Shown here in pieces: positions 12,503 to 38,850 of a DNA stretch of 48,719 bases. Positions within the stretch are counted from its first letter, which is position 1. Each line of letters starts with the position of its first letter. The stretch is taken from the IMG/VR virus record IMGVR_UViG_3300027819_000018, positions 1-48,719 of that record; one strand, 5' to 3'. A program made the position numbers and the translations under genes. The notes under the pieces were generated by a model that was given only the letters and a program-made list of their open reading frames with translations, was not told the DNA's origin and did no database searches. Origin of the DNA: a virus (Duplodnaviria > Caudoviricetes).

Positions 12503-13510
12503 GTGGTGAGGATGGCAGAGATGGTTGACTCAATTCTAAACGGCAGCAGCCTTCTAATCACGGGGGGAACGGGCTCATTCGGGAATAAATTCATCGAGAT
12601 GGTATATCGGGACTATCATCCTCGACGCATTATCATTTTTTCGCGCGACGAGCTCAAACAGCACATCATGCGCCAGCGTTGGCCGGATAGTGCCGAGTCT
12701 TCTATCAGATATTTTATCGGCGACGTGCGGGACCATCAAAGACTCAAACGTGCTTTCGAGGGCGTTGATGTGGTCATCCATGCTGCGGCACTCAAACAGG
12801 TGCCCGCTTGCGAATATAATCCCTCCGAGGCAGTGCGGACTAACGTGCTCGGGGCGCTGAACGTCATAGAGGCGGCGCTCGACTGCGGGGTCAAGCAAGT
12901 GCTCGCACTCAGTAGCGATAAGGCGACTTCGCCGTATAACCTCTACGGGGCAACCAAGCTGGTCGCCGAAAAGCTGTTTGTGCAGGCCAACTCCTACCGC
13001 GGTGAACACGGGACCCGCTTCGCCTGTGTCAGATATGGGAATGTGGTCGGCTCGCGGGGTTCAGTCGTGCCGCTATTTCGCGAGCAAGCCAAAGCCGGGC
13101 GAATCACCATCACAGATCCCCGAATGACCCGCTTCTGGATAACGCTACCGCAAGCGGCGCAGTTCGTCGTGTCGTGCCTGACCATTATGCAGGGCGGGGA
13201 AGTATTTATCCCCCGCCTGCCTAGCTGCCGGATCGCTGACTTGGCTGAAGCCGTCGCTCCTGGCTGTGGGGTAGAGCATATCGGCATTCGGCCCGGGGAA
13301 AAATTGGCCGAATCCATGCTATCGGAAGACGAGAGTTTTTCCACGGTGGACCTGGGCGACCGCTATGCCATCCTGCCAACACATCCGTGGTGGAGTAATG
13401 GCAATCACGCGGGAGCAAAGCCGGTGCCTGATGGCTGGTGCTATCGCAGTGACCTAAACGATAGGTGGCTGGACGTGGCCGAGTTGAGGAGAATGATCGA
13501 TGCAGGATAG
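12503..13510 (+). CDS. pseB: UDP-N-acetylglucosamine 4,6-dehydratase (inverting)
   Basis: ITGGTGSFG, FSRDELKQ, HAAALKQVPACEYNP, LYGATKL, VRYGNVVGSRGSV, MTRFWITL, GIRPGEKL; start may be 12512 or 12521. Confidence 0.95.
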   Translation: MVRMAEMVDSILNGSSLLITGGTGSFGNKFIEMVYRDYHPRRIIIFSRDELKQHIMRQRWPDSAESSIRYFIGDVRDHQRLKRAFEGVDVVIHAAALKQVPACEYNPSEAVRTNVLGALNVIEAALDCGVKQVLALSSDKATSPYNLYGATKLVAEKLFVQANSYRGEHGTRFACVRYGNVVGSRGSVVPLFREQAKAGRITITDPRMTRFWITLPQAAQFVVSCLTIMQGGEVFIPRLPSCRIADLAEAVAPGCGVEHIGIRPGEKLAESMLSEDESFSTVDLGDRYAILPTHPWWSNGNHAGAKPVPDGWCYRSDLNDRWLDVAELRRMIDAG

Positions 13511-14144
13511 GGCGTTCTTAGACGGCGAGGCCGATGCTTACCACCAGCGCAATCATCACAAGTACGCGGCGCTGATCGAGAAGGACCCGCCGCTCTCGGT
13601 GCTCTCTGCGGCAGGGATCCGAGCCACAAGGGTACTCGAAATCGGGGCGGCTACAGGTTGGCGGCTGGAAGAGATTCGCCGGCGGTACGGGGCTGAATGC
13701 TGGGGAATCGAGCCATCACGGCAGGCGGCAGAGGAAGGTAAGCGCCTGTACCCCGGTATCACGATCTATCACGGCATACTGGACAATATATACCTCTCGA
13801 CTGCCAGCTTTGATCTAATCGTCCTATCCTTCGTGCTGCACTGGGTGCCACGAGAGAAGCTGCTCGCCACCCTGGCCGAAGTCGACCGGATGCTGGCCGA
13901 TGGGGGGCATCTGATCATCAGCGACTTTTGGGTGCCGGAGCCAACCAAGGTGCCGTACCACCATCAGGAAGGATTGTGGACCTATAAGGCGCGCTATTGC
14001 GAGATGTTTGAGCTTACCGGCCGCTACCTCACGCTTATTGCAACGCTATTCGACGCGGACACATTGCAGACGGGTCACGCGGCCGAATCCAGTCTAGCCA
14101 ATTGCACCATCCTCCAAAAGGGGGACTTCTTCCGATGCGTGTAG
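13500..14144 (+). CDS. Class I SAM-dependent methyltransferase (pseudaminic-acid-cluster type)
   Basis: FLDGEADAYHQRN, VLEIGAATG, GIEPS, FDLIVLSFVLHWV, L.DGGHLIISDF. Confidence 0.85.
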   Translation: MQDRAFLDGEADAYHQRNHHKYAALIEKDPPLSVLSAAGIRATRVLEIGAATGWRLEEIRRRYGAECWGIEPSRQAAEEGKRLYPGITIYHGILDNIYLSTASFDLIVLSFVLHWVPREKLLATLAEVDRMLADGGHLIISDFWVPEPTKVPYHHQEGLWTYKARYCEMFELTGRYLTLIATLFDADTLQTGHAAESSLANCTILQKGDFFRCV

Positions 14145-15067
14145 GTATCCTGGGAATGGGTTCTATCGGCTGTCGACACGCCGCCAACGTCAAGGCGCTG
14201 GGACACGAGGTGATAGCCTATGACTATAGCATCCAGGTACAGGAAGCCATCAAGCGGGATTACGCGATGTGCGTAACACTGCGGGACGTTTGGACTACGA
14301 AGCCGCAGGCCGTCCTCATCTGCACTCTGCCATCGAGTCACCTGGAATTAGCTTATGAAGCATTCAGGCACGGGTGCCACACCTTCATCGAGAAGCCGCT
14401 AGGGTTGTCTTTGGATGGATGGAAGGAACTGGGGCGAGAGTTTGACAGGGCTGAGTTGGTGGACATGGTAGCGTGTAATTGGCGATGGCACGAAGGGTTG
14501 CTACGTCTGAAAAAGGCGCGAGAACTCGGCTTCCCGCATAACCCGCGATCGCTTACTATATGGCACTATTCCTATCTGCCCGGCTGGGTTAAGGGGCGGA
14601 ATTGGCGCGAGCACTACAGCGCATCGAAGGAGCAAGGCGGGGTGCTGTTTGAGGCCGCTTGGCACCTGGTAGACCTCGCAGTCTGGATGTTCGGCAGCGC
14701 TCACGTTGAGGAAGCGTTTTTAGAGCCGTCCACCCCGCTGGGCCTTGACTGCGATGGCTACGCTGGATTGACTTTGCGACACACGGCCAAGCGTAAAACG
14801 ATTATCGAGACAGACTGGCGCTACAAACAGCGTAGTATGGCGGTCATCGTGGAGGGAGAGAGAGCAGAGAAAATAGCCTGGTATCTACGGGATAGCAAAG
14901 ACTATGACGATAACGAGATGTATAAGGCAGAGATAGCGGAGTTTTTGGGATGCTGCTCACTGAGAGTACCGAGCCCTAACCCCATTAACTCGGCGGTCAA
15001 GACATTACAAATATTATTGGAGGCGAAAACGTGGGAACAACAGCAGCTATCATCGCAGCGCGACTAG
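14135..15067 (+). CDS. Gfo/Idh/MocA family oxidoreductase
   Basis: MRVGILGMGSIGCRH Rossmann motif; HTFIEKPL; GGVL....HLVDLA. Confidence 0.9.
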   Translation: MRVGILGMGSIGCRHAANVKALGHEVIAYDYSIQVQEAIKRDYAMCVTLRDVWTTKPQAVLICTLPSSHLELAYEAFRHGCHTFIEKPLGLSLDGWKELGREFDRAELVDMVACNWRWHEGLLRLKKARELGFPHNPRSLTIWHYSYLPGWVKGRNWREHYSASKEQGGVLFEAAWHLVDLAVWMFGSAHVEEAFLEPSTPLGLDCDGYAGLTLRHTAKRKTIIETDWRYKQRSMAVIVEGERAEKIAWYLRDSKDYDDNEMYKAEIAEFLGCCSLRVPSPNPINSAVKTLQILLEAKTWEQQQLSSQRD

Positions 15068-15735
15068 GGAGCAGCAGGCTCCCAAACAAGGCGTTGGCCG
15101 ACATCAACGGCCATCCTATGCTCTGGCACGTCGTCAACCGTGCCCGGCGTATCCCCGGCGTTGACCAGGTCGTCGTGGCGACCTCGTTTAGCGCGGCCGA
15201 CCAGCGGCTCATTAGCTGGTGCCAGCGCGAGGGCATCCCGGTTTACCGTGGCGGGGCTCACGAGAACGACGTGCTCGGCAGGTATTTCGACGTAGCCACG
15301 CAGCTCGGGGCGGATACCATCGTCAGGCTGACGGGGGATTGTCCGTGTTTTATGCCCGAGATCGGCACCGGAGTTCTTAGGGCCCTCATCGAGCAGGACG
15401 CTTCGTATGCATCGAACGTCGAAAACGACCGGTACATTGATGGGTTCGATTGCGAAGCCTTGACCATGGAGCTCTTGGAACAATCACACTATAAGGCGCT
15501 CAAGCCGGCCGAGCGGGAACACGTCACACTATGGGCACGGAAGCACGCCAAGAAGAAGGCCGACTACGTGCCGGATGTAGTTCTTCCCAAGGTTAAGCTA
15601 TCGGTTGACACGCTAGAAGAGCTGGACCTCGTTCGCGCCATGTTCGCGGACCTGGGGGACGACTTCGGGCTAGCCGAGGTGCTGGCGTGGTGTGAGAAGA
15701 GGGAGGCGAAGGATGACGCAGCCAAAGACGCTTGA
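15031..15735 (+). CDS. SpsF/PseF-like cytidylyltransferase (CMP-nonulosonate synthetase-like)
   Basis: IIAARLGSSRLPNKALADING.PML, DVLGRY, IVRLTGDCP, REHVT, LSVDT. Confidence 0.88.
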   Translation: MGTTAAIIAARLGSSRLPNKALADINGHPMLWHVVNRARRIPGVDQVVVATSFSAADQRLISWCQREGIPVYRGGAHENDVLGRYFDVATQLGADTIVRLTGDCPCFMPEIGTGVLRALIEQDASYASNVENDRYIDGFDCEALTMELLEQSHYKALKPAEREHVTLWARKHAKKKADYVPDVVLPKVKLSVDTLEELDLVRAMFADLGDDFGLAEVLAWCEKREAKDDAAKDA

Positions 15736-16978
15736 TCCTCTGCCGACAGCGGCGACATTCTCGAAGTCGCCGCGAATGTGGGGCAAGGACTTCGAGCTGT
15801 CAGACGTTCTCTATGGCGAGGGAGCGCAAATTTGTGGCGGCGATGGCCGTACTTATCTGGATTGGGTTTCCGCACTTGGTGCAAATCTTCTAGGATATGC
15901 TAAAGCAGCGGATGGCTCCCCGCAGTTCCGCTGGCTAAATGAGGTGCAAATAAGGCTGAATGATGGCGTTGCTTTCTCTCTGCCGCACAGATTAGAGCAT
16001 ACCGTCGCCTGCAAGCTCGTGGAATTGCTCGGCTCCCGCGTCCCCGGCTGGACGCCGGAAGGGCTGGGCGTGCGCTGGGGGCTCTCGGGCAGCGATGCCT
16101 GCAATATGGCGATACGCCTAGCACGGGCAGTGACCGGCAGGAAAAGGGTACTCAGTAGTGGTTACCACGGTTATCTTGACGCCTTTGTGTCTGTCACACC
16201 GCCGGCCTGGGGCATAACCCAACCGCAATATGTGGAGGATTTTGACTTCTTCAATCAGGTATCTTTACTCAAGGCGCTGGACGATGGCGAGCCCGTGGCG
16301 GCGGTCATTGTCGAGCACCCGATGCCGGGCCACGACCGAGAATGGTATCGAATAGGCTATGAGGCGCTGCGTAACGCCTGCACATCACACGGGGCGTTGT
16401 TAATTCAAGATGAGGTAGTTACCGGCTTTCGCTGGGCTCCTGCTGGTGCCTGCGAATACTACGGCATAACCCCGGACATCGCCACCTATTCTAAGGCGCT
16501 CGGGAATGGCGTCCCTGTCTCCGCGATGGTGTTCCGCAAAGAGTACGGGGAATGGTTCTTTCGCAACGACCCAGTATTCGTCAGCTCCACCGGCTTCGGT
16601 AATGCCCTATCTCTCGCCGCTGCCGATGCCGTTTTGGACATATGGACCCAGGAATGCGTCGACCACCTCTGGGCTATCGGCAAGGCCCTGATGGATGGCC
16701 TGCGGCAAGCGGGCTACAGTGTGGCGGGTTGCCCGCCGCGCTCGCTCATCCAATTCAGCAGCAACGCCGAGCGGGGATACTTCATTGCCGGCATGCGGGA
16801 TCGGGGCATTCTCATGAACCGACCAAACCTGCCAAACCTGGCACACAGCCAAGCAGACGTGGAGCTCACGGTCAAGGCAGCACGCGAAGTCAAGGCAGAG
16901 ATAGACGCGATGGGGCCGGATGGGGTAGCCGAGAGGATGAAGGGCAAAGAGCCGATGGTGTTGTTTCAAGGGAGGTGA
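15713..16978 (+). CDS. Class III PLP-dependent aminotransferase (GSA-aminomutase-like)
   Basis: YLDW....GANLLGY, SGSDA..MAIRLARAVTGR, GYHG, LIQDEVVTGFR, PDIATYSKALGNG (PLP Lys). Confidence 0.9.
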   Translation: MTQPKTLDPLPTAATFSKSPRMWGKDFELSDVLYGEGAQICGGDGRTYLDWVSALGANLLGYAKAADGSPQFRWLNEVQIRLNDGVAFSLPHRLEHTVACKLVELLGSRVPGWTPEGLGVRWGLSGSDACNMAIRLARAVTGRKRVLSSGYHGYLDAFVSVTPPAWGITQPQYVEDFDFFNQVSLLKALDDGEPVAAVIVEHPMPGHDREWYRIGYEALRNACTSHGALLIQDEVVTGFRWAPAGACEYYGITPDIATYSKALGNGVPVSAMVFRKEYGEWFFRNDPVFVSSTGFGNALSLAAADAVLDIWTQECVDHLWAIGKALMDGLRQAGYSVAGCPPRSLIQFSSNAERGYFIAGMRDRGILMNRPNLPNLAHSQADVELTVKAAREVKAEIDAMGPDGVAERMKGKEPMVLFQGR

Positions 16979-16984
16979 AAAAGA

Positions 16985-17218
16985 GTGAAGGAGATCAAGT
17001 GCACAGCCGAGTCCATTGAAGTGCCAATCGATGATACCCGTTGCATGCTCGTTGTCAGAATAGAAGCGCAATTGACCGAGCAAGAGGCGCGCCTTATTCA
17101 GACAGGATTACAAGACAAGCTCAGTCAGTGGTGGCCGACAAACGAGAAGTTCCTAGTCCTGGTAGTGGATGGGAATGTGCCCATTCAAGTGCAGCTTGAG
17201 AGAATTAGCAGGGAATAA
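16985..17218 (+). CDS. Hypothetical protein
   Basis: GGAGGTG RBS; GTG start. Confidence 0.55.
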   Translation: MKEIKCTAESIEVPIDDTRCMLVVRIEAQLTEQEARLIQTGLQDKLSQWWPTNEKFLVLVVDGNVPIQVQLERISRE

Positions 17219-18220: not shown

Positions 18221-19015
18221 ATGATGGACAATAAAGTCTTTTGGGAACAACAGGCCACGCTGGGCTCGGAATCCGGCACGCGAGACCGGATAGCCAAGCA
18301 ATTGGAAATCCAGGCCATAGCCAAACACGTCAAGGACGGGATGCACGTTCTCGACCTCGGCTGCGGCGACGGCGAGACTTTGCTCGAGCTATGCCGGCGC
18401 TACGAGATACAAGTCGTGGGGGCCGATCGCTCGGAGTCGATGATTCGCGCGGCAACACACAACGCCGGGATAGCCACTGCCGAGGGGCTGAAAAGCGGGC
18501 AGCCCAGGTTTTACCGGGGACCGTTCGACGTGCTGGACATTCCGGAACTGTTGGCGAGTGAGCGTTTCGACCTATGTTACACTGAGCGGGTATTGATAAA
18601 CCTAGCGAACTGGGAAGAGCAGGCGCAGGCTATCCGGAATATCGTTAGTCTACTCAAGCCGGGGGGATTAGCGGTATTCTGCGAGTGTAGCCAGGACGGA
18701 TTAGACCGCATCAATGAATTGCGCGTACAGGTAGGACTAAAGTCTATTAGTCCCGCGTGGCATAATCTATACCTCACAGAGGGCCGGATGTGCGACTTAC
18801 TCGCAACCCTCGACGGCTGCTTAGAATGGACCTGGGCGGACTACTTCGCTTCGACCTACGCTTACCATTCACGGGTAGTCAACGCCTATCTTGCCAAGCA
18901 GGAAGGGCGGGATCCGAGCTATGATGCGCCGGTCAACGCGATGGCCTTGAAGCTGCCACCGATGTTTGGGTATATGGGCCAGAACGCCATCTGGACGTGG
19001 AGGAAGGCGGGATGA
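18221..19015 (+). CDS. Class I SAM-dependent methyltransferase
   Basis: VLDLGCGDG, GADRSESMI, FDLCYTERVLINL, LKPGG. Confidence 0.9.
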   Translation: MMDNKVFWEQQATLGSESGTRDRIAKQLEIQAIAKHVKDGMHVLDLGCGDGETLLELCRRYEIQVVGADRSESMIRAATHNAGIATAEGLKSGQPRFYRGPFDVLDIPELLASERFDLCYTERVLINLANWEEQAQAIRNIVSLLKPGGLAVFCECSQDGLDRINELRVQVGLKSISPAWHNLYLTEGRMCDLLATLDGCLEWTWADYFASTYAYHSRVVNAYLAKQEGRDPSYDAPVNAMALKLPPMFGYMGQNAIWTWRKAG

Positions 19016-19257
19016 GGATTCACTCCTTTTGTAAGGTGTCCAACGTAACGATCGACGGAGGCGACCTCGGCATGCTCACCTTCCCGAATGCAAAATGCCG
19101 TTATTGCGGCAGGCTCTATGGGCTAAACGAAGAGGAATTGATGTCACTACCGACACAGATGGCTCGTTGCCCGAATGGCCGCGAGTTATCCTTGCGGGAA
19201 ACGATAGCGGGGCTGATACGGGGGTGCTTCAATTGTTGGGAGGGAAAACAGCGATGA
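19012..19257 (+). CDS. Cys-rich hypothetical protein
   Basis: ATGA overlaps at both ends; CRYCG. Confidence 0.55.
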   Translation: MRIHSFCKVSNVTIDGGDLGMLTFPNAKCRYCGRLYGLNEEELMSLPTQMARCPNGRELSLRETIAGLIRGCFNCWEGKQR

Positions 19258-20303
19258 GCCATATCACGATAGCCGGCCGCCAGATAGGGCCAGGAAACCC
19301 GGTATGGATAGTGGCCGAAATAGGAGCCAACGCCAGAACCTACTATGATGCGGAGCGCCTTATCATCGAAGCGCACGAAGCCGGGGCCGACGCGGTCAAG
19401 GTGCAGGCAATCCGACCAGACGGAATAACCCTCGATTGCGATAACGAGCACTTCCAAATCAAAGACGGGCCCTGGAAGGGGCGCACCCTGTGGGACCTGT
19501 ACGAGGAATGCGCCATGCCGTGGTTATGGTTCGATGGACTAAAGCGAGTGACCGAAGCGCTCGGGATGACGTTCTTTGCGTCGGTGTTCTGCAAAGAGAG
19601 TGTTGACTTCTGTGAGTCGTTGGGGATGCCCGCATACAAGATAGCCAGTTTTGAGCTGGTAGATTTGCCTCTCATTCGTTACGCCGCCAGCAAAGGGCGT
19701 CCGGTGATACTGTCAACGGGGATGGCAACGAAAGAGGAAATCAAGGAAGCGCTATGCCTGTTCAGGGGGCGCTCATCGTCTGAATATGATCCTGTGGCTG
19801 TTCTGCATTGCGTCAGCGCATACCCGGCTAATCCTGTTGATGCAAATCTAGAGAGGATAAGGGCGGATGGCGAGTTCTTTGTGATGGGCCTCTCCGACCA
19901 CACTCTCGGCATAGCCGTGCCCGTGGCCGCAGTGGCGCTCGGAGCCTGCATCATCGAGAAGCACCTGTGCCTGGACCGGAGCGCAGGCGGGCCGGATAGC
20001 GCCTTTTCCTTGGAGCCTGCCGAGTTCAAGGCGATGGTCGATGCGGTTAGGGTGGCAGAGCAGGCGATGGGAGAGGTGAAGTATGGAGCGACGGAATCAG
20101 AGCGAGCCAATTTGCAATTCAGGCGATCGTTATTCGTCGTTGCTGACGTCAGAGCAGGCGAACGATATAGCCCGGAGAATGTGCGCAGCATTAGGCCCGC
20201 ATCTGGCCTACACCCACGATTCTTTGATGAGGTTTGCGGACGCCGTGCGGCAAGAGATGTTGCGCGAGGAACGCCGTTGGGGTGGGAGATGGTAGCGAAG
20301 TAG
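19254..20303 (+). CDS. pseI: Pseudaminic acid synthase-like (NeuB family with SAF domain)
   Basis: IVAEIGAN, ADAVKVQ, YKIASFELVDLPLI, LSTGMA, LHCVSAYPA, GLSDHTLG, IIEKH, GPDSAFSLEP, FRRSLFVV, RSIRP..GLHP. Confidence 0.92.
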   Translation: MSHITIAGRQIGPGNPVWIVAEIGANARTYYDAERLIIEAHEAGADAVKVQAIRPDGITLDCDNEHFQIKDGPWKGRTLWDLYEECAMPWLWFDGLKRVTEALGMTFFASVFCKESVDFCESLGMPAYKIASFELVDLPLIRYAASKGRPVILSTGMATKEEIKEALCLFRGRSSSEYDPVAVLHCVSAYPANPVDANLERIRADGEFFVMGLSDHTLGIAVPVAAVALGACIIEKHLCLDRSAGGPDSAFSLEPAEFKAMVDAVRVAEQAMGEVKYGATESERANLQFRRSLFVVADVRAGERYSPENVRSIRPASGLHPRFFDEVCGRRAARDVARGTPLGWEMVAK

Positions 20304-20354: not shown

Positions 20355-21272
20355 ATGGCTAGGAGTCCGTTTATTGAGAACTGGTTGGATCATCAGAAGG
20401 TCGATTGGCAGTACATTGCAGAGATGCCTATTGAGTCAATCGACAAAGAGAAGAGTTTAGCGAATCAATCTCGGTTAGGAGAAAAACTTGACAAGAACTA
20501 TGTTGACCGGCTCATTCAAGCCAAAATCGATCAAATGTTGATACCGGCGCTAATTGGCCATTATGAGGGGTCAAAGATAGTTCTGAACGACGGGAACCAC
20601 CGATTAGATGCAGCGGTTGCCGTAGGCGACAAGGCTATCGATGTCTACCTTATCAAGGGTGACGATTCACGGGGACAAGAGCGAATCACAAGAGCCGCTA
20701 ATTTGCCTGGATCAAAAGGGATGCCTCACGAGCATGTTATAGAACACGCCAAGTGGTATGTGCGAGATCGAGGATGGGCAATCAAGGCGGCAGCAGCATA
20801 TTGGGGGCTAAAAGAGTATGTTCTAAAAGCGGCACTTGATGTAGATGCAGCTAGGCTACGGATGGGGGAGTTAGGTGTATCAGAGAAAAAACATTCAGCA
20901 GCGATGATGATGCGCATTGCGGACATTCCGTCGAATCCTGTAGCTACAGAGATGGAGAAATTGGTTTCTGAGGCTCGGCTTACTGTCGAAGAAGCAAGTC
21001 CGCATATTTCTAAGGTGCGCCAAGCACGCAGTGATCTTGACGGGATCAAAATGGTGAAAGAATGGCGAAAGGGATATGCGGATCGCATCGGAGCTATACC
21101 GCCAGTTGGAACCAAAAAACCGTTACGATCCCTGACGCCAGAAAGGAAGTTTATGCGCGGATTGCGTCAGGTGGTTTGGGCATCGGAAGACTTATCTGAC
21201 TATATTCCGGGAAGTGATGCTATGGCTCTAATTGATGCTGCAATTGCAAGGTTAGTGAGGATGAGGAGATAG
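20355..21272 (+). CDS. ParB/Srx N-terminal-domain protein
   Basis: IVLNDGNHRLDAA ParB-like motif followed by helical/HTH region. Confidence 0.7.
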   Translation: MARSPFIENWLDHQKVDWQYIAEMPIESIDKEKSLANQSRLGEKLDKNYVDRLIQAKIDQMLIPALIGHYEGSKIVLNDGNHRLDAAVAVGDKAIDVYLIKGDDSRGQERITRAANLPGSKGMPHEHVIEHAKWYVRDRGWAIKAAAAYWGLKEYVLKAALDVDAARLRMGELGVSEKKHSAAMMMRIADIPSNPVATEMEKLVSEARLTVEEASPHISKVRQARSDLDGIKMVKEWRKGYADRIGAIPPVGTKKPLRSLTPERKFMRGLRQVVWASEDLSDYIPGSDAMALIDAAIARLVRMRR

Positions 21273-21279
21273 AGTAAGA

Positions 21280-21672
21280 ATGAGCAGTCTGACGAGAGGG
21301 CTAAGGCAACGGTTAAGATCGGTGCTAGCTGATGGTGAATGGCATTCAATGGTTGAATTGTTGAAGGCGTGTGACGGCTTGATTCGGCCAGAGGTGGCAT
21401 TCCGATCTGGCTCTAAGGCATTGAAAAATAGTTATAGAGCTGACTACATTGTTTTGATTGGCAAAGTGAGGACTATTCGCTTAGACCTTTGTAAAATTGG
21501 AGTAGATAGTGAAGGGCAAGGGCTAACAGCGCGATTTCGCTTAAAGGAGGAAAGGCGACTTGAAGATAGAACAGATAATAGTCTCGCAGCGGCGGCGCGA
21601 GGACTTGGGCGACTTGGCAGGACTGGCGGAGAGCATCGAGAGGTACGGACTGATTCACCCGATAGTGATTGA
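21280..21672 (+). CDS. Hypothetical protein (possible wHTH)
   Basis: VLADGEWHSMVELL; 3' end overlaps the next gene by ~110 bp. Confidence 0.5.
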   Translation: MSSLTRGLRQRLRSVLADGEWHSMVELLKACDGLIRPEVAFRSGSKALKNSYRADYIVLIGKVRTIRLDLCKIGVDSEGQGLTARFRLKEERRLEDRTDNSLAAAARGLGRLGRTGGEHREVRTDSPDSD

Positions 21673-22309
21673 TGCCTCCAACAACCTAGTAGCCGGTGAG
21701 CGTCGTCTCCGTGCCTGCCAAATTCTAGGCTGGAAAGAGATTGAGGTACGTCCATTCGGGGAACTGTCAGAAGCCGAGCGCCGAGAGATCGAGCTAGAGG
21801 AAAATCTACGGCACAAGGACTTGACGGAGAGTGAGCAGTCAAGGCTAATGACCCAAAGGGCTGACGTTGTGGCCGAAGTGCTACGCGAAAAAGCAGACGA
21901 GGAAGCAAGTCCATTATTCAACGTGAATGATAGACCTGCTGGGCCGCCTGCTAAACCTGACAGCCAAGAAAAGGTTGCTGACTATCTAGGGGTAAGCCAA
22001 TCGACTATCAGCCGAGCCCGCCAGCACGTCACGGCTGTTGAGCGACACCCTGAGCTAGTAGACAAATCTCAAGCCGAAGCACTTCGAGAAGCAAAGCGAT
22101 TGGAGGAACCGACGCCAAAACCGGTCGATACCAGCAAGGCTTGGCTCAAGAACCTGCGAATGTTCCGCGATGCCTTTGCCGAGATCGAGCAGGGCGGTGG
22201 CATCGGTCGCATTGCTCAGTCTTGGACTATTGAGGGCCGCAAGCAGATTCTTGACGAGATTGCCTACATTCAGGCTGAGTTTCAACGCTGGGTTAGCGTG
22301 TTGGCATAG
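21560..22309 (+). CDS. ParB/RepB/Spo0J-like protein
   Basis: LAESIERYGLIHPIVI...LVAGERRLRA...ELEENL.HKDL; HTH SQEKVADYLGVSQSTISR; TTG after AGGAGG. Confidence 0.88.
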   Translation: MKIEQIIVSQRRREDLGDLAGLAESIERYGLIHPIVIDASNNLVAGERRLRACQILGWKEIEVRPFGELSEAERREIELEENLRHKDLTESEQSRLMTQRADVVAEVLREKADEEASPLFNVNDRPAGPPAKPDSQEKVADYLGVSQSTISRARQHVTAVERHPELVDKSQAEALREAKRLEEPTPKPVDTSKAWLKNLRMFRDAFAEIEQGGGIGRIAQSWTIEGRKQILDEIAYIQAEFQRWVSVLA

Positions 22310-22375: not shown

Positions 22376-22579
22376 ATGATACAAGCGACTACGGGCGCAA
22401 TTGGGCTGATATGCCCTAACTGCAGGGCCGATGAATCGGTGTGGCTGCACCAGCGGCTCAAGAGCTACAGAGGCAGGCCGCCTATTCATAAATGCCACAA
22501 TTGCAAGAATTTTTTTACCGAGCCGCTGGCCGACTTACTGCGGGAAGCAGGAGGGCTTGACAAGCCAGCAGGCGGGTGA
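22376..22579 (+). CDS. Zinc-ribbon protein
   Basis: CPNC...HKCHNCKNFF. Confidence 0.6.
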   Translation: MIQATTGAIGLICPNCRADESVWLHQRLKSYRGRPPIHKCHNCKNFFTEPLADLLREAGGLDKPAGG

Positions 22580-22585
22580 TAGACT
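22557..22585 (+). promoter_or_regulatory. Putative late promoter
   Basis: TTGACA(22557)-N17-TAGACT(22580) with TGn extension. Confidence 0.7.
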
Positions 22586-26914: not shown

Positions 26915-27098
26915 ACTGCCTGCCTATCTGAATGTTTCGGGCGCTCGCATAGTTGATAATCGCTTCGAGCTATCCGTCAAGCTGAATGCCAAACACCCCG
27001 CTCTCTGGCGCGAGTTGTGGTACTGGCTGGACATCAAGCCACGCTGGCTCAAGCCGATAGCTTGGGTTTGGATGATTTGGAGGTTAGGAAGGGGATGA
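26907..27098 (+). CDS. Trp-rich hypothetical protein
   Basis: Overlapping, coupled ORF. Confidence 0.55.
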   Translation: MPKLPAYLNVSGARIVDNRFELSVKLNAKHPALWRELWYWLDIKPRWLKPIAWVWMIWRLGRG

Positions 27099-30831: not shown

Positions 30832-32172
30832 ATGGAAAAAGCACTGAAGGACATCGAAGGGCGGATGGCCGCTCTTCTGAGAGAGTCCGACGAGATAGCT
30901 ACCAAGGGGCTTGAGGGCGACTTCGAGCGACTGAAGACTATCAACGTCGAGATGACCGACCTGAAGGGCAAGAAAGAAACCCTCAAGTCATCCCTGGAAA
31001 ACGCCCAGTGGGCGCGAATGTCGGCGGGAATGCTGCCGCTCACCGGCAACCCCGGCGAAGTCACGGTACAGGGCGTCAAGAAAACCGGCGAGACGGTTAT
31101 CGAGGACCAAGGCAACAACATCCTCATCAACCAGGACGGCGAGGGCCTACTCCCGGCGGAGAAGGTCAAGCTCATCCGCTCGGCGGAGTACAAGTCGGCT
31201 GTCAAGTCCTACATGCGCAAGCTGGGCGAGTGGAATCTCGGCTACGACGCCTTGAAGGTCTTGCAAGAGGGTGCCGACACTTCCGGCGGCTACCTGGTGC
31301 CCGAGGACATGCTCAACCGGCTCATCGCCAAGGAGCCCGCACCGACCACGATAGGCGGGCGCGTGTCCCGGCTGACCACCTCCAAGGACGTGCTGAGTGT
31401 CCCCCGCGTGGTCTACACCACGGACAACCAGTACACCTCGGGCATGCGCGTGACCTGGACCGGCGAGGTCCCGGCGTCCGCGACCACGCACCGAGTTACC
31501 GAGCCTAGCTTCGGGCAGGTTCGTATTCCCATCTTCACGGCCATGATGAGCCTACCGCTCACCAACGACCTGATTGACGATGCGTCCTATCCGCTGATGT
31601 CCTGGTGTACCAGCAAGTTTGAGGAAACTATTCGCTTGCTGCAATCCAACATGATCATCAATGGCGGCGGGGCGACCGAGCCGCAGGGCATTCTCGTCAA
31701 CTCGCAGTTCATCGCCAACGACGTGCATACCGGCACTAGCGGGGCGTTGACCTGGGACGGCATTCTCAACACCGCCTTTGCTCTGCCGGAACAATACGAC
31801 GAGAACGCCGTCTGGGTCATGAACAAGGCTTCCGGGGCGCTGAACCTCTCGAAACTTCAGGATGGCGAGGGTCGGCCTTACTGGTCGATGGGCACCGGGG
31901 ACAGCGGCCTGGTGGGGATGCGCATCAAGCGCGACCTGATCGGCTATCCCGTCATCTTCGACAGCTTCATGCCCAACGTCTCGGCGGGGCTCTACCCCAT
32001 CATCTTCGGGGATCTACGCGGCTACTACCTGGTCAACCGGGCCGCGTTCTCGGTCCAATACCTGCGTGAGCTTTACGCCGAAACCGGCCAGATCGTGCTC
32101 CTGGGCAAGATTCGCTTCGGCGGCCAGCTAGTCGAGGACTACAGAGTCGTCGGCCACGTGGCGAGCGCGTAA
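30832..32172 (+). CDS. Major capsid protein (HK97 fold)
   Basis: SGGYLVPED, WTGE, EPQGI, NAVWVMN, LQDGEGRPYW, LIGYPV, IIFGDL, RFGG. Confidence 0.93.
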   Translation: MEKALKDIEGRMAALLRESDEIATKGLEGDFERLKTINVEMTDLKGKKETLKSSLENAQWARMSAGMLPLTGNPGEVTVQGVKKTGETVIEDQGNNILINQDGEGLLPAEKVKLIRSAEYKSAVKSYMRKLGEWNLGYDALKVLQEGADTSGGYLVPEDMLNRLIAKEPAPTTIGGRVSRLTTSKDVLSVPRVVYTTDNQYTSGMRVTWTGEVPASATTHRVTEPSFGQVRIPIFTAMMSLPLTNDLIDDASYPLMSWCTSKFEETIRLLQSNMIINGGGATEPQGILVNSQFIANDVHTGTSGALTWDGILNTAFALPEQYDENAVWVMNKASGALNLSKLQDGEGRPYWSMGTGDSGLVGMRIKRDLIGYPVIFDSFMPNVSAGLYPIIFGDLRGYYLVNRAAFSVQYLRELYAETGQIVLLGKIRFGGQLVEDYRVVGHVASA

Positions 32173-32196: not shown

Positions 32197-32652
32197 ATGC
32201 ACAACCTGACTAAAAACGTCCGCATCGACCCGGCGTTCATCAACGCTGTTGCTGGCTCGACGTTTAAGTACTCCGTCGTGTTCGACATGCAGGGGTACGA
32301 GGGGATCGCCGGCATTCTCAACATTGGCGACGTAACCACCGGCGCGGCCTGCCCGTTCTACGCCGAAGGCTCGACCGCGAGTGACGGCACGTTCGTCAGC
32401 TTCTACGGCTCGACGGCTGCCTTCACGGTAGCGGGGGCATCCGGAGATGTGTGGCTCATTTCAGAGGTCTACCGGCCCAACAAGCGCTATGTGCGCTTCG
32501 TGGCTGGCCGGGCCACGGCCAACACCGTAATCAATGGCGGGCTGGCCTTGCGCTATCGGGCCGACGAGCTGCCAGTGGCCGAGTCGACGTCCATCGCCGG
32601 GACCGGCTGGGTCCAGGACTACGCACTGGCGGTCAACGCGACTTCCAGCTAA
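32197..32652 (+). CDS. Capsid decoration/cement-like protein
   Basis: Directly after the MCP; beta-rich; DMQGYEG...KRYVR pattern. Confidence 0.6.
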   Translation: MHNLTKNVRIDPAFINAVAGSTFKYSVVFDMQGYEGIAGILNIGDVTTGAACPFYAEGSTASDGTFVSFYGSTAAFTVAGASGDVWLISEVYRPNKRYVRFVAGRATANTVINGGLALRYRADELPVAESTSIAGTGWVQDYALAVNATSS

Positions 32653-32748
32653 TAGTCGAATTACTCCAACGTCCCCCGGCCAGGCTGGGAGGAATAGAGG
32701 TTGGCGGACTTGGCATTCCGCCAACCTCGTAGCAAAGGAGGTGCCAAA

Positions 32749-33621
32749 TTGAGTTATGTCCCACTCGTTTACAAGACCAGCGGGGGCGATCAACTCACCG
32801 TCGCTAGTGGCGGAGTCCTCGAACTGGAATCCGGCGCAACCCTATCCCTCGATGGGCAGGATATTAGTAGCACTGGAGGCATAGAGGCTTCCAGCGGAAC
32901 CTTTACCGCCGACATCGCGCTCACATCGGGCATCAGCGCGTCGACAGGTATATTCACCGGGGGCGTGCAGCTATCCAGCACGTTGACCGCGGTACACGGC
33001 ACGTTCTCGAGCGGCATCACGGCGACCACCGGGAACTTTTCTGGCGACATAGCCGTAACGTCCGGCATTACTGCCACCACGGGCAACTTCTCCGGGGGTA
33101 TCGCGCTCACCTCGGGAATATCAGGAACTACCGGCAACTTCTCGTCGGGCGCCAGCTTCGGGGGAGCGGTCTCGTTCACCAGTGGCATTAGCGCTACAAC
33201 GGGTAATTTCTCGGCTGGCATCGCCGTATCCTCGGCGGCATCGGTAGCCAACACGTTCACGATGTCTAGCGCGATGGTCCGACCCTTCGAGACGTTCGCC
33301 ACGGGCGTATCTAGCGGGCAGGCCATCAAGACATATGGCGTTTCTCAAATCTGGTCCTGTGGCCTAGAGACCGGGCGGCTCTGGTCGATGGGCGCGGGCG
33401 TGGCCGGCTACGAGAAGTGGATTTACAACGTCGGGGCGGCCTCGACGGCTGCGGCTATCGTGCAGACGAGCGGCAGCGCAGCAATGATCAATGGCACCAA
33501 CACATCGCTCATATTCTCGACCGGCGGGACCAATCGCCAATGGGCGTTCCTGCTCTGCGAGAACTCGACCAACTGGATGCTCTTAGCAGCGTCCACCGAC
33601 GTGACACTCAGCGCATCATAA
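32749..33621 (+). CDS. Head-fiber-like Ser/Thr/Gly-rich repeat protein
   Basis: TTG after AAGGAGGT; N-terminal SYVPLVYKTSGGDQLTVASGG.LELESG resembles head fibers; ~17-aa SGITATTGNFSG repeats. Confidence 0.7.
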   Translation: MSYVPLVYKTSGGDQLTVASGGVLELESGATLSLDGQDISSTGGIEASSGTFTADIALTSGISASTGIFTGGVQLSSTLTAVHGTFSSGITATTGNFSGDIAVTSGITATTGNFSGGIALTSGISGTTGNFSSGASFGGAVSFTSGISATTGNFSAGIAVSSAASVANTFTMSSAMVRPFETFATGVSSGQAIKTYGVSQIWSCGLETGRLWSMGAGVAGYEKWIYNVGAASTAAAIVQTSGSAAMINGTNTSLIFSTGGTNRQWAFLLCENSTNWMLLAASTDVTLSAS

Positions 33622-33630
33622 CACATAGAA

Positions 33631-33684
33631 ACCTGGCCGGGGCTGGCGGGGCATCCCTTCCTGCTTGCGCGGTCCCGGCCGGGT
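33631..33684 (+). promoter_or_regulatory. Long GC hairpin containing an anti-SD segment
   Basis: ACCTGGCCGGG/CCCGGCCGGGT stem; internal TCCCTTCCT complementary to RBS AGGAAGGGG (33692-33700). Confidence 0.4.
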
Positions 33685-33704
33685 CAAACGAAGGAAGGGG
33701 AGAA

Positions 33705-34784
33705 ATGGAAGAAGGGACGACAAGCGGATTGGGTATCGTTTATTTCAGCACTGCCGTCAACAACGCAGGCAGCAGTAAACCCAAACGAAAAAAGGCAAAA
33801 AGAGCGTTGCCGAAAGTAGCGATACCAGAACCATCAGCGGAAGCAGTTGAGTTAGTTCAAGTCAGTGAGAAATTGCCTGTGGTGGCAAACTCAACGGCCG
33901 AAGTACAGGCGATACCGGAAGCAACAGCGACGGCGGCAATCGTACAGGTAGAAGGCGAAGTCAAGGCTGCGGAGACTGTCTCAATCAGCAACGAGACGGC
34001 GACGGTCGCATTCAAGCCGATGACCAAAGAGGAGCTTGAAGCGGCTGCACCAACCCTACCAGTCGAGCAGAAAGCCAAGCGCACCAAAGTGGCGATACTC
34101 GGCTTCACCGACTCATGGAAGCTGGCGCCGTTCCAGGACCCGGAATACGAGATATGGGGCCTCAACGAACTATACCAGTTCATTCCGAGATGGGATAGGT
34201 GGTTTGAGTTGCACAGCAGGCGCGTCTACGAGAATGACCGCAACCGGGTGAGCGACCATATCCAGAAGTTGAAGGCGATGACCTGCCCGGTCTACATGCA
34301 TCAGAAGTGGGACGACATCCCGGCCAGCGTGCCCTATCCGTTGCAGGAAGTGGCGCAGTGCATCCCGAATCCCAGTCCGGGGGCCAAGCCGTATCTGACG
34401 AACACCATATCGTACATGATTGCCTTGGCAATTATCGAGGGGTTCACGGACATCGGAGTGTTCGGCGTGGATATGGCACATTCAACTGAGTACGGCCAAC
34501 AACGCCCAAGCTGCGAGTTCTACGTCGGCATCGCCATGGGCCGCGGTATTCGCGTCTACATCCCGCCTGAAGCGGACCTGCTCAAAACGCCGTTCCTGTA
34601 CGGCTACGAGGAAGAGGCCGCTAACGCCTTCGACGTAAAGCTCAAGGCGCGCAAGGCCGAAATCGAGCAGAAGATAGCGGGCTTGGACAATCAGATCACG
34701 CAACTGGTCGAGGCGCGGGCCCAGTACCGCGGGGCACACCAGGATACCGACTATATGCTCAGCAACTGGAAATCACAGCACTAG
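33705..34784 (+). CDS. Putative sialyl/nonulosonyl-transferase-like glycosyltransferase (CstII/GT42/Maf-like fold)
   Basis: KVAILG...IWGLN...TNTISYMIALAIIEGFTDIGVFGVDM..STEY parallels CstII KVIIAG...VFRCN...TSGVYMCAVAIALGYKEIYLSGIDF (recalled from memory). Confidence 0.7.
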   Translation: MEEGTTSGLGIVYFSTAVNNAGSSKPKRKKAKRALPKVAIPEPSAEAVELVQVSEKLPVVANSTAEVQAIPEATATAAIVQVEGEVKAAETVSISNETATVAFKPMTKEELEAAAPTLPVEQKAKRTKVAILGFTDSWKLAPFQDPEYEIWGLNELYQFIPRWDRWFELHSRRVYENDRNRVSDHIQKLKAMTCPVYMHQKWDDIPASVPYPLQEVAQCIPNPSPGAKPYLTNTISYMIALAIIEGFTDIGVFGVDMAHSTEYGQQRPSCEFYVGIAMGRGIRVYIPPEADLLKTPFLYGYEEEAANAFDVKLKARKAEIEQKIAGLDNQITQLVEARAQYRGAHQDTDYMLSNWKSQH

Positions 34785-34822
34785 ACATAACGCCATAGTG
34801 TGAGCACAGATGGAGGTGCAAC

Positions 34823-35530
34823 TTGGCAAATTCCACGGGGTTCGTAGGCACGCAAAAAGTCTGGCAGGAGTGGTACGAGGTATCGACCGGCCTGCATGCC
34901 CGGCTCATCGCTGGGGCGCTCATCGGCCTGACCACCGATGACGAGCTAGTCCAAATCAAGATGACCACAGCGGGCAATATCCACGTCGAAATGCAGCCGA
35001 GCACGGAGAGTGTTGGCTACGTCACCCTCGGGTCCAGCAACAACCACGCGGGACAGGTCGGGGGCAACTCGGCGTTTCCCAGTGCGGCCATTGCGGTGAC
35101 CACCTCAGGAGCTTATTCGAGCGGCGACGTGATGGGCGCCTCGGTGACGTTCTCTGGCTGCTTCCGCTCGACGGACATAATGTCGGGCATCCTCCAAAGC
35201 GTCGTCGTCACCGACCTTTCCACTGCGGCGCAATCGGCTATCGACCTCTGGCTGTTTCAGACCGTCACGACTGGCACGACGTACACCAACGATTCTGCGC
35301 TCACCCTGGCAGACGCGGACATTGCCAAACTGGTAGCCAAGGTCAGCATTTCCAGCGGTGATTACTACCAGTTTGCCAACAACGCCGCGGCGGTAGTCAG
35401 TAATCTCGGTTTGCCGATTCGTGCCACGACGGGCACCGGCTTGACCGGGGTAGCCATCTGCCGTTCGACGGGGCCGCAGTACGCGAGTACCGGGGACCTG
35501 AATGTAACGTTGGGGATTTTGCAGGATTGA
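34823..35530 (+). CDS. Ser/Thr-rich putative virion protein
   Basis: TTG after GGAGGT; beta-rich; AYSSGDVMG; in the morphogenesis operon. Confidence 0.6.
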   Translation: MANSTGFVGTQKVWQEWYEVSTGLHARLIAGALIGLTTDDELVQIKMTTAGNIHVEMQPSTESVGYVTLGSSNNHAGQVGGNSAFPSAAIAVTTSGAYSSGDVMGASVTFSGCFRSTDIMSGILQSVVVTDLSTAAQSAIDLWLFQTVTTGTTYTNDSALTLADADIAKLVAKVSISSGDYYQFANNAAAVVSNLGLPIRATTGTGLTGVAICRSTGPQYASTGDLNVTLGILQD

Positions 35531-35534
35531 CATA

Positions 35535-36773
35535 ATGCGACTACTAACCGAGCACGCCGAAATAGAAGAACTAGGCAACGGCAGAGAGCAGCAGGCCATT
35601 GGCATCGCACCGATAGCTTACCGGCGCAACGGCAGCCTGACGCGTATTGTCAACCAGTTGGGAGCATCGGGCGATCCGTCGCTGCCGCTGGGCGTTTCCG
35701 AGTTGGTGAATTTCCGCGTCCGTGACCGCCTCAGTGGTAACGCTCCCTTGGTGCATTTTGGCAAGGGGCAGAGTCACGTCCGGTTCACCCCGCTGAACAC
35801 CAACAATATCAATGGCGTGGTCGCAGGCAATACTGTCACTTTCCCGAACGCCTGGAACAACGCTGACCTCAGATTGTCCATCGGGGGGCATATCCTGCAC
35901 AAGCGCTGCCCGCTCAGAACGGGACACCCACGCACCTGGAACTTCCGGTTTGACGACCATCAGAATTTCAACTTCGACACGCTCAGTTCGGAGGAGTTTC
36001 GCATCCTGCCGCCGAGTCTACACAGAGGCATAGAAACTATCCCCCTCTCCTGGGTCAAATCTGTGCAAGGCGGCAAGAACATCCTATCCGTGACTCTGCC
36101 CGATGGAGACTTCGCCGGATGGGAGTTGGACCCGACGATTACCCTGCAGCCTGGCTCGGCTGGCATCGATACGCTGATTCAGAGCAATGCGCCGAATAAC
36201 AACTGGGGGGCTTACAACACGCTGGCTATCGGCCAGGTGGGGGTGGGCACTTATCGCGGGCTTATCAAGTTTGACCTGTCTAGCATTCCAAGCGGCGCTC
36301 TTGTCAGTGCGGCTACCCTGTCACTCTACTGTCTGGCCGATGCGTCCACCAACGCGCGTACCTTTCGTGTGTTTCGCCAAAAGCGAGCCTGGACGGAAGG
36401 CACTGGCTCGGGCTCGGCCACTGGCGACGGTGCTACCTGGGATACCTACGACGGTAGTCAAGCCTGGCAAACCGCCGGGGGCTTTGGGGCCAACGATTGC
36501 GAGCAGACCGACATTGGCAGCCGCGATTTCACCGCTTCCGAGACGGTCAACGAGTTCAAGGATTTTGTTCTCATCGCCAGCGCGGTGCAGGCGTGGATCG
36601 CCGGGACGTTTACCAACAACGGAGCCTTGATAAAGCCCGACACCGAGGATAGCGACGAGTACGATTTCGCCAGCTCCGACAACGCCACAGCTGGCAACCG
36701 GCCCAGTCTGGCGGTGGGGTATGTGATGCCTCGGCGCGGCATGTTCCACTTCCAAGGCTGGAGGAGGGTCTAA
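35535..36773 (+). CDS. DNRLRE/CBM96-like domain virion protein
   Basis: DTLIQSNAPNNNWG, RGLIKFDLSSIPSGA.VSAATLSLY, GATW, FASSDNATAGNRPSL. Confidence 0.75.
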   Translation: MRLLTEHAEIEELGNGREQQAIGIAPIAYRRNGSLTRIVNQLGASGDPSLPLGVSELVNFRVRDRLSGNAPLVHFGKGQSHVRFTPLNTNNINGVVAGNTVTFPNAWNNADLRLSIGGHILHKRCPLRTGHPRTWNFRFDDHQNFNFDTLSSEEFRILPPSLHRGIETIPLSWVKSVQGGKNILSVTLPDGDFAGWELDPTITLQPGSAGIDTLIQSNAPNNNWGAYNTLAIGQVGVGTYRGLIKFDLSSIPSGALVSAATLSLYCLADASTNARTFRVFRQKRAWTEGTGSGSATGDGATWDTYDGSQAWQTAGGFGANDCEQTDIGSRDFTASETVNEFKDFVLIASAVQAWIAGTFTNNGALIKPDTEDSDEYDFASSDNATAGNRPSLAVGYVMPRRGMFHFQGWRRV

Positions 36774-37393
36774 TGGCCTACGTCACCGTGCCGGACCTAC
36801 TCAAGTATCTCGGCAGCACCAACACGACCAGCTCCGTCAGCACCGGCGAGTATGAGACTCTCGATGCCTGTGTCAGTGCGGCCCAGCAGGAGATCGACAA
36901 CTACTGCCGCCGCTCCTTCGAGGAAACCACCGGCACGCGCTACTACCGCTCGGACGACCTGGTTGACCTACCCGGCCTGGGCGGCAGCGGCAACGTGCTC
37001 TGGCTGGGCGAGGACTGCCTAGCCGTCGACGCGCTGACCAACGGGGACGAGACGACCCTAACCAGCACTGAGTATTGGTTGGAGCCGCGCAACTCGTCGG
37101 CGCGCGGCAAGCCCTATCAGTATATCAGGCTTAGGACCGGCCAGTCGTGGATCTTCGACACCGACGGGGAGCTCAACGTCGCCGCGTCATGGGGCTACAG
37201 CAGCACTCCGGACGATACGATAGTGCAGCTGACCAAGGAAACGGCAGCTTTTCTGTACCGCAACCGTGATAACCCCGTGTTCGATGTCACGGCCAACCCG
37301 GAGCTCGGGATTATCACCACGCCGAAGGGCATGCCGGCGCACGTCAAGGTGGCGCTCTCGCAGGGCGGCTATCGCAAGAAGAGGATCGTATGA
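36773..37393 (+). CDS. Head-tail adaptor (gp6/gp15-like)
   Basis: MAYVTV.DL..YLG, AA..EIDNYCRRSF, WGYS..PD. Confidence 0.8.
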   Translation: MAYVTVPDLLKYLGSTNTTSSVSTGEYETLDACVSAAQQEIDNYCRRSFEETTGTRYYRSDDLVDLPGLGGSGNVLWLGEDCLAVDALTNGDETTLTSTEYWLEPRNSSARGKPYQYIRLRTGQSWIFDTDGELNVAASWGYSSTPDDTIVQLTKETAAFLYRNRDNPVFDVTANPELGIITTPKGMPAHVKVALSQGGYRKKRIV

Positions 37394-37842
37394 CGCTCGC
37401 CAGCACGCTGACTAAGTTACAGGCATTGAACCGGGGGAGCAGCGGCATCGCCACGGCGCCAACCGCGTACCCGACGGCACTCAACGCCGCCGACTTGCCG
37501 TGTGCTTTGACCCTGGTCGGCGCGGGGGACTGCAACGAGCAGGCGGTCGGACTGAAGCGCACCGACACAATGTATCACATCATCACCTACGTCAAGCCGG
37601 TGGCGCACGGAGTAGGCATCGATGAAGGAGTACAGGTCTGTCTACCCATCCTGCAAGCGATGATAAACACCTATCTGGACAACCCGACGCTGGACGGCAC
37701 CATCGACCACATCGGCGAGCAGGGGGAGTTCAGCCATAGCGGCATACAGAGCGGAGATAGCGACCGGCGGCTCATTTACGGGGGCACGAGCTATCACGGC
37801 TTCATCGTATCGTTACGGATAACCGAAAAGACCAGTTCATAG
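37390..37842 (+). CDS. Tail terminator/completion protein (putative)
   Basis: Position before the tail tube; LPCAL, NPTLDG pattern. Confidence 0.6.
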   Translation: MTLASTLTKLQALNRGSSGIATAPTAYPTALNAADLPCALTLVGAGDCNEQAVGLKRTDTMYHIITYVKPVAHGVGIDEGVQVCLPILQAMINTYLDNPTLDGTIDHIGEQGEFSHSGIQSGDSDRRLIYGGTSYHGFIVSLRITEKTSS

Positions 37843-37854
37843 GAGGTAAACAAA

Positions 37855-38850
37855 ATGGGAGCTTCTGCAGCACTTAGATTGATGCTCTCGACCGATGAAG
37901 GAACCTGGGGCACCGACACGGCGACCACCAGGAAATTGCACGGGCTCACGGACGCATCGCTCAGCGCCAACCAGACGGTCGAAGTCGTGCCGACGGTGGG
38001 CAACTTCGGCCCCGGCACGGTCTCGGCACGAACCGCCCAATCGGGCGAGGGCAGTATCGAGTTCGTGGCAACTTACGAGGAATTGCCCATCATTTACAAC
38101 GGGCTGTTCACGGCCATCGATGCATCGAGCATCACCTCGGGCTCGCCGTACAACTATCCGTACACGGCGCCCAACGCCAGCACGCAGGTGGTCAACAGCT
38201 ATACCATGGAGTTCGGGACCACCGGGCAGTGCTACCAGATGACCGGCAGCGTGTTCAACACCCTGACATTGAAGGGCGAAGCCGGCGGACTCTGGACCGG
38301 CAGTGTTGACGTGCTCGGCAAGCGCGTTGACCCGGCCACGATGACTACCGAAGGCGTCAACCGCGGCGTCAACCCGATTCGCATGGCCGACACGTCGCTG
38401 TACGTCGACGCTTTTAGCACGGGCACTATCGGCACGACGTTGACCAGCGGTACGCTGATCTCGTTCGAGCTTTCCGTCAACCCGAACCGGCACCTCAAGA
38501 CCTTCGCGGGCTCGGAAGCCCCTGCGAGCTGGGGCGATGGCAGGTGGGAAGGCTCACTCAAGACGGTCGTGGAATTTAATAGCTCGGCGAAGGCACTGAT
38601 CGATGAGATGCTGGGCTCCACGGGCGTGCAGCTACAGAAGCAGGTTAGGCTCTACGCCACCGAGGGCAGCAGCGCGAGCGTGCGCAGCGCCACCGTGGAC
38701 TTTGCCGGGGTAGTCTCCGATCCGGTCAAGTTCTTCGACGATCGGGACGGGAACATGACCATCGAAGTCACCTGGCAGGGCAAGTACAGCACGGGCCTGG
38801 GAAATTGGCTCGGAGTCGCCTGTCAGAACGGCACGTCGAGCACAACCTAA
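37855..38850 (+). CDS. Tail tube (major tail) protein, Ser/Thr-rich
   Basis: E.TWGT N-terminal motif; SYTMEFG; position before chaperone and TMP. Confidence 0.75.
   Translation: MGASAALRLMLSTDEGTWGTDTATTRKLHGLTDASLSANQTVEVVPTVGNFGPGTVSARTAQSGEGSIEFVATYEELPIIYNGLFTAIDASSITSGSPYNYPYTAPNASTQVVNSYTMEFGTTGQCYQMTGSVFNTLTLKGEAGGLWTGSVDVLGKRVDPATMTTEGVNRGVNPIRMADTSLYVDAFSTGTIGTTLTSGTLISFELSVNPNRHLKTFAGSEAPASWGDGRWEGSLKTVVEFNSSAKALIDEMLGSTGVQLQKQVRLYATEGSSASVRSATVDFAGVVSDPVKFFDDRDGNMTIEVTWQGKYSTGLGNWLGVACQNGTSSTT

Follow-up and report, generated by a model that had tools for sequence, protein, structure and literature searches.

Can a small tailed phage make its own sialic-acid-type sugar and place it on its own particle? 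This question is raised by the IMG/VR record IMGVR_UViG_3300027819_000018, the whole linear record of an uncultured tailed phage, with an estimated completeness of 59%. All 48,719 nucleotides were analyzed (the window), and genes without a name are called by their start position. Seven sugar-pathway genes lie upstream of the terminase gene terS, and the head operon holds a gene, 33705, for a predicted cytidine monophosphate (CMP)-nonulosonate:protein transferase (Table 1). In the reading put forward herein, the phage would make a CMP-activated pseudaminic-like sugar, and 33705 would attach it to Ser/Thr residues of accessory, neck and tail proteins. We place the probability of this reading at roughly 0.7. 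The gene system is real and widespread, and it is apparently undescribed.

All pathway genes named in the original prediction are intact open reading frames (ORFs) on the plus strand, at or near the positions expected. One transcription unit with coupled overlaps had been proposed. The overlaps hold for the first five genes, chained by 11, 10, 37 and 23 nt; the second methyltransferase and PseI stand apart, with small phage-type ORFs filling the roughly 1.2 kb in between. The G+C content of the pathway genes, about 0.52-0.60, agrees with that of the remainder of the record. The cytidylyltransferase is closer to KdsB/SpsF-type models, and the PseF model TIGR03584 gave just 26 bits against a cut-off of 206. 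Some relatives carry an aminotransferase-cytidylyltransferase fusion (L239:1561-3603). In the relative G100, a gene with an N-terminus similar to that of the 18221 methyltransferase sits directly before NeuB.

The 33705 protein consists of a variable 124-aa N-terminus, a Rossmann-like core and a long C-terminal helix. The top matches of its confident structure model were Maf and GT42 sialyltransferases, so that the fold anticipated for a CMP-sugar transferase was found. Its sialyltransferase-like identity is predicted from this modeled fold and from profile evidence. The best Foldseek matches were the GT42 enzymes CstII and Cst-I of Campylobacter jejuni (1ro7, 2p56; E 1.4e-5), which share the core fold at 14-16% identity and a TM of about 0.44. 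Two motif blocks align between GT42 and the phage family, one with the invariant Asn30 and the other with a Gly-x-Asp strand, whereas His46 and the Glu138-Tyr-x-x-Gln-Arg-Pro-Ser-Cys-Glu147 block are conserved features of the phage family itself. The match between the family profile and GT42 chains was weak (E 0.06-0.6). GT42 enzymes act on galactosides of lipooligosaccharide. By the model, the fold is also common to the catalytic domain of Maf (Magnetospirillum, PDB 5mu5), which O-glycosylates flagellin with CMP-pseudaminic or legionaminic acid and, in the excerpted text of PMC7591256, acts on Ser/Thr. Maf has 632 residues, whereas the phage protein has a core of about 175 residues and the long helix; identity is 14%, and PF01973 was not matched. 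The fold was also compared with MptE-like HPPK and thiamine pyrophosphokinase, with no clear order between these and the transferases. The nearest named cluster in the Atlas is PF01973 at 0.80, taken as a lead only. Separately, intein or LAGLIDADG domains occur in the long homologues P0208, P0219, P0243 and P0254.

The donor pathway was found to co-occur with the transferase in both directions and across unrelated phages, as had been predicted. Among 82 loci with the transferase family, 50 were tested, longest contigs first. NeuB was present in 21 of these 50 records, in 16 of the 18 records of at least 35 kb and in 7 of 8 near-complete ones. From the side of PseI (80 loci), 48 of the 50 longest were examined, with two records common to both sets. 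The transferase family was found in 40 of these 48 viral records, and in 21 of the 23 near-complete ones. Neither gene was found in 47 controls picked by an HK97-like capsid (many fragments, 5 near-complete). Fifty carriers were chosen, 49 with both genes and one without NeuB; the cytidylyltransferase was present in all 50, a PseB-like gene in 38, DegT in 33 and NeuC in 7. Carrier pathways differ in HisF, GNAT, formyl- and methyltransferase genes and in genes that we take to be amidotransferase-like, with the transferase and the cytidylyltransferase as the constant members. A CMP-nonulosonate transferase would be expected to show this pattern. Thirty-three records were read whole. Their structural genes are mostly unrelated, with five capsid clusters; the cluster of the 13500 methyltransferase occurs in 21 of them and that of the oxidoreductase in 10. 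The recurrence of the gene set in many unrelated phages indicates that carriers likely cover their own particles with sugar. A SASA-family (sialate acetylesterase-like) gene was also seen near the pathway of the carrier G096 (L300:7296-8768).

The transferase gene lies in the head operon between the Ser/Thr-rich genes 32749 and 34823, as first described. The order is terL, portal, protease, HK97-type capsid, 32197, 32749, 33705, 34823, adaptor and tail tube 37855. In the records read whole, the gene upstream of the transferase had at least 20% Ser+Thr in 24 of 33 cases (one further was not found), compared with 143 of 1302 ORFs from the same records. In 18 records it belongs to a single family without a name. 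When a podovirus-type lineage was picked by its capsid, the pair of partner and transferase was present in 26 of 26 informative loci (81 examined); over the family loci, the partner family was directly upstream in just 13 of 65.

The bias extends beyond this neighbor. In the 7 kb after the capsid gene, the median Ser+Thr content was 18% (7.7-25.5%) in 26 carriers versus 13.4% (10.5-20.4%) in 48 control loci (nominal p 2e-8, kinship ignored). Six of the 33 records had no assigned capsid and were excluded, and the non-carrier G054 was set aside at 0.15. Enough sequence was available in 49 of 80 control loci; one of these, L427, is a carrier and was counted apart (19.7%). Within the HK97-like capsid family, carriers (23-51% capsid identity) had 0.20-0.26 Ser+Thr and non-carriers (34-42%) had 0.12-0.16. 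The bias in this family follows the transferase gene, not kinship. When four carriers of this family were pooled, Ser was 10.2 vs 6.7% and Thr 11.6 vs 7.2%, Ala was unchanged, and Glu and Lys were about halved; the pool includes one transferase, which dilutes the effect. C-terminal Ser/Thr runs end 19 of 186 proteins in carriers versus 9 of 372 in controls, and 4 of the 7 post-capsid proteins at positions 32197-38850 of the window. Virion O-glycosylation predicts such a hydroxyl-specific shift in particle genes that follows the transferase; none of the rival explanations does.

Ser/Thr richness could also be a structural trait of beta-rich fibre proteins in these lineages, with the transferase active on a single narrow acceptor or a small glycan rather than across the particle. 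Ser/Thr/Gly-rich sequence is frequent in fibre and spike proteins. The gene is fixed in the podovirus-type lineage, so no within-lineage control is available there, and the capsid and the portal are not enriched, which fits a trait of this kind. We consider this explanation very unlikely, since the bias in the HK97-like capsid family goes with the gene and the adaptor and tail orthologues contain more Ser/Thr than their control homologues. The original prediction of Ser/Thr-rich acceptors is supported for part of the virion: the adaptor, 37390 and the tail protein (23.6% vs 17.2-20.7% in 3 control homologues) exceed all of their few control homologues, and the capsid does not share the enrichment. 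The likely acceptors of the predicted O-glycosylation are thus accessory, neck and tail proteins, and 32749 first among them. The C-terminal domain of 32749 joins the partner family through relatives (E 5e-13 after one profile iteration). A direct search with the partner-family profile missed it, hhalign gave P 0.001 and a probability of 21%, and its structure model was of low confidence. The adaptor and the tail protein are assigned to the virion by family match, and 32749 and 34823 would be virion proteins by gene position. Ser/Thr-rich genes similar to 34823 by position and inspection come after the transferase in L403 and L404. The insertions in the G001 orthologue of 37855 are Ser/Thr-rich. 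The 32197 product showed no enrichment over 9 control homologues; its counterparts in the relatives G001 and L427 have 26-27% Ser+Thr.

The missing enrichment of capsid and portal is one of several results that weigh against virion glycosylation. No Pfam (E 0.01), PHROG or NCBIfam family was matched by the 33705 protein. A promoter-like site at 22557-22585 precedes terS, which suggests that pathway and head genes need not share one transcript; it is a weak call, with 12 such sites found against 6.7 expected. The claim that donor synthesis is wholly phage-encoded was not supported. Of the canonical CMP-pseudaminic pathway, PseB and PseI were found, and PseC, PseH and PseG were not; a class III aminotransferase is present instead. 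In this record (an estimated 59% complete), there was no match to DegT (PF01041; control 14 of 14), to GNAT (PF13302) or hexapeptide (PF00132) acetyltransferases, or to NeuC. PseG (TIGR03590) was over the cut-off in 0 of 50 carriers, the lone weak match falling inside a NeuC gene. It is missing even in all 38 carriers with a PseB-like gene, which implies a hydrolase of another kind or dependence on the host. These gaps indicate that the sugar is a pseudaminic-like variant, and the release of the sugar from uridine diphosphate (UDP) is the step without explanation.

This gap raises the idea that 33705 is itself the missing UDP-sugar hydrolase, a PseG substitute, with attachment of the sugar left to a host transferase or the sugar put to another use. 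The uniform lack of PseG is in line with it, as are shorter transferase paralogues found among the clustered pathway genes, next to the cytidylyltransferase or NeuB (G078:25086-25751, G086:9075-9707, G100:3908-4471). However, six records on the NeuC (hydrolysing epimerase) route without PseB retain the transferase gene, two of them near-complete (G007, G022), and in G025 the gene lies beside the cytidylyltransferase without NeuB. The fold is that of CMP-sugar transferases, and the gene usually has a Ser/Thr-rich neighbor within the head block. A hydrolase role is accordingly judged quite unlikely.

The sugar might instead be placed on host flagellin, pilin, S-layer, lipopolysaccharide or capsule, as a superinfection block or surface change. 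Bacterial pseudaminic and legionaminic acid systems decorate cell surfaces in the excerpts of PMC7591256 and PMC7439481, and in this record a possible late promoter follows the pathway genes. When 185,579 prokaryote genomes were scanned with two short patterns, 24 loci with the family came up, a lower bound, all in metagenome-assembled genomes and mostly on short contigs. Among six loci inspected, L403, L404 and L413 are phage head blocks, and L414 is a sugar-pathway block. In two Acidobacteriota chromosomes, the family gene lies at most two genes from a cytidylyltransferase, with no phage genes in view; these copies (L411:9860-11665, L426:8436-13142) have a PMT-type transferase or predicted membrane and secreted proteins nearby. 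In the phage, however, the transferase is embedded among head genes on the lytic strand, and strongly hydrophobic segments are absent from it and from 6 of the 7 pathway proteins; the exception, PseI, contains a single internal window at 2.05. Across four related viral records, this one and three relatives (two of the four complete), the search turned up no tyrosine integrase. The bias of the particle genes toward Ser/Thr would also be left unexplained, and decoration of the host surface is considered unlikely.

The same bias is left unexplained if the sugar goes onto phage DNA as a hypermodification against restriction, which we regard as highly improbable. The pathway often adjoins terminase genes, and the closest relative, G001, carries a TET-associated glycosyltransferase (PF20691; L243:12797-13651) three ORFs after NeuB. 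DNA-glycosylation clusters also occur close to structural genes (bioRxiv 10.1101/2023.12.21.572611, in excerpt). However, such a glycosyltransferase is present in just 1 of 50 carriers, and not in this record. The published DNA transferases are GT-A/GT-B enzymes with a C5-methyltransferase and 5mYOX, and that paper never mentions sialic or CMP (bioRxiv 10.1101/2023.12.21.572611). The TET/JBP partner (PF12851) was matched in 0 of 50 records, with no positive control matched either, and none was found in G001.

Virion glycosylation by the phage would proceed as follows. PseB would convert host UDP-GlcNAc to a 4-keto-6-deoxy sugar, which the class III aminotransferase and/or the oxidoreductase, together with the methyltransferases, would tailor; with these tailoring enzymes the product is probably not plain Pse5Ac7Ac. 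The hexose would be freed from UDP by a host or non-orthologous hydrolase and condensed with phosphoenolpyruvate by PseI, and the cytidylyltransferase would make the CMP donor. The soluble transferase, co-made with the head genes, would then O-link single residues to Ser/Thr-rich virion proteins, first 32749, in the cytoplasm before or during particle assembly. The virion would thereby gain a coat, acidic and hydrophilic, that may reduce adhesion to particles, aggregation, proteolysis or binding to decoys. A bolder version is given even odds: a large family of compact Maf-like transferases would have moved among unrelated tailed phages together with interchangeable pathways, would have driven the exchange of Glu/Lys for Ser/Thr in particle proteins to give a dense coat of the phage-made sugar, and would rely on another enzyme in place of PseG.

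By the tests made, the system would work like the Maf-flagellin system, yet it falls outside Maf, GT42 and the canonical pathway; it is viral, its record lacks flagellin and PseC/H/G, and its predicted acceptors are virion proteins. In kind, it would be a variant of virus-encoded virion glycosylation. Giant viruses (chloroviruses, mimiviruses) encode nucleotide-sugar donors and transferases for their own particles, with neutral or amino sugars and genomes of hundreds of kb. Those viruses are eukaryotic, whereas the carriers here are tailed phages of 37-94 kb with predicted CMP-nonulosonates. In the mycobacteriophages Che8, Corndog and Myrna, phage transferases modify the capsid and tail tube, with glycans reported at C-termini (Freeman et al. 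2023, as cited in PMC12363180 and PMC12619734, in excerpt), and many carrier proteins here likewise end in Ser/Thr runs. The excerpts of those accounts mention no phage-made donor or nonulosonate, and in our case the capsid is not enriched. The sps legionaminic acid pathway of the Bacillus subtilis spore crust likewise uses SpsF-type nonulosonate activation to coat a dormant particle on its outside, and its loss leaves spores less hydrophilic and more adherent (excerpts of PMC7439481). That system is cellular, with SpsC, SpsD and SpsG, and its transferase is not identified in the same excerpts. The words virus, phage and viral do not occur in the excerpted nonulosonate synthase survey PMC8208679. 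A literature search, in which subscription journals were thinly covered, gave no account of phage nonulosonate pathways or nonulosonylated virions.

Among 50,697 GenBank phage records, PseI matched 3 and the transferase family 1, the cultured Microcystis phage Mvi-Yong1342-1 (L179:34781-35584, PP496355.1). Its transferase is annotated as a methyltransferase and lies before terS; NeuB is absent, and the donor may come from the host. With 2,988 clusters at 50% identity the family is large, yet it is hardly seen in cultured phages, which points to a common, unseen trait of environmental virions. If true, small tailed phages make sialic-acid-type sugars and coat their particles with a chemistry tied to animal cells and bacterial surfaces, which would affect virion adsorption to particles, persistence and recognition. 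The cultured carrier makes the acceptor question testable now, and, if its activity is real, a compact and soluble nonulosonyl-transferase for Ser/Thr would be of use in glyco-engineering.

Table 1 Coordinates of the pathway, head and tail features (S+T, Ser+Thr content; SAM, S-adenosylmethionine; PLP, pyridoxal phosphate; RBS, ribosome-binding site).
Position	Strand	Feature	Evidence
12512..13510	+	PseB, UDP-GlcNAc 4,6-dehydratase (inverting)	TIGR03589 475 bits, cut-off 408; PF02719 E 5e-100
13500..14144	+	SAM methyltransferase, weakly like Pse-associated methylase	Methyltransf_23/25/11; TIGR03587 E 2e-9, below cut-off
14135..15067	+	GFO/IDH/MocA oxidoreductase	PF01408 E 2e-12
15031..15735	+	SpsF-type cytidylyltransferase, predicted CMP-activation of nonulosonate	PF02348 E 4e-24, over cut-off
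15713..16978	+	Class III PLP aminotransferase	PF00202 E 2e-28; not a PseC/DegT enzyme
18221..19015	+	Second SAM methyltransferase	PF13847 E 7e-17
19254..20303	+	PseI-type nonulosonate synthase (NeuB + SAF)	TIGR03586 394 bits, cut-off 340; start + RBS
30832..32172	+	HK97-type major capsid	PF05065; 13.7% S+T vs median 13.2% in 73 control homologues
32197..32652	+	Small post-capsid gene, putative decoration protein	17% S+T; Ser/Thr C-terminus
32749..33621	+	Prime candidate acceptor, 290 aa	30% S+T; five Ser/Thr/Gly repeats; C-terminal transferase-partner-family domain
33705..34784	+	Unnamed Maf/GT42-fold protein, predicted CMP-nonulosonate:protein transferase	Fold and profile evidence
34823..35530	+	Ser/Thr-rich neck-region protein, candidate acceptor	Family not assigned; 23% S+T
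35535-36773		DNRLRE/disaggregatase-repeat (CBM96-like) protein beside neck genes	Possible carbohydrate-binding particle protein
36773..37393	+	Head-tail adaptor	phrog_442; S+T 18.9% vs 9.3-15.2% in 5 control homologues
37390..37842	+	Neck/tail-completion-position gene	S+T 18.0% vs 9.5-13.5% in 2 control homologues
37855..38850	+	Tail protein, probable tail tube, candidate acceptor	phrog_290; Ser/Thr C-terminus

By family matches, the record also encodes a primase-helicase, terminase, portal, tape measure, holin and amidase, and nearly all of its genes lie on the plus strand. The same PseI is present on a 56,752-base contig, and less may therefore be missing from the record than the completeness estimate implies. 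Close homologues of the transferase were found on contigs labelled Chloroflexi or Dehalococcoidia, and a PseI homologue on one labelled Chloroflexi. These labels are weak evidence on the host because such bins often contain phage contigs. Two genes lie between PseI and terS (20355-22309): 21560, with a ParB_N domain, and 20355, which looks similar but has no annotation. An excisionase-like HTH_17 gene is located at the record end (48442-48630), and an HslV-family peptidase gene (phrog_1040) lies within the head block (27017-27631).

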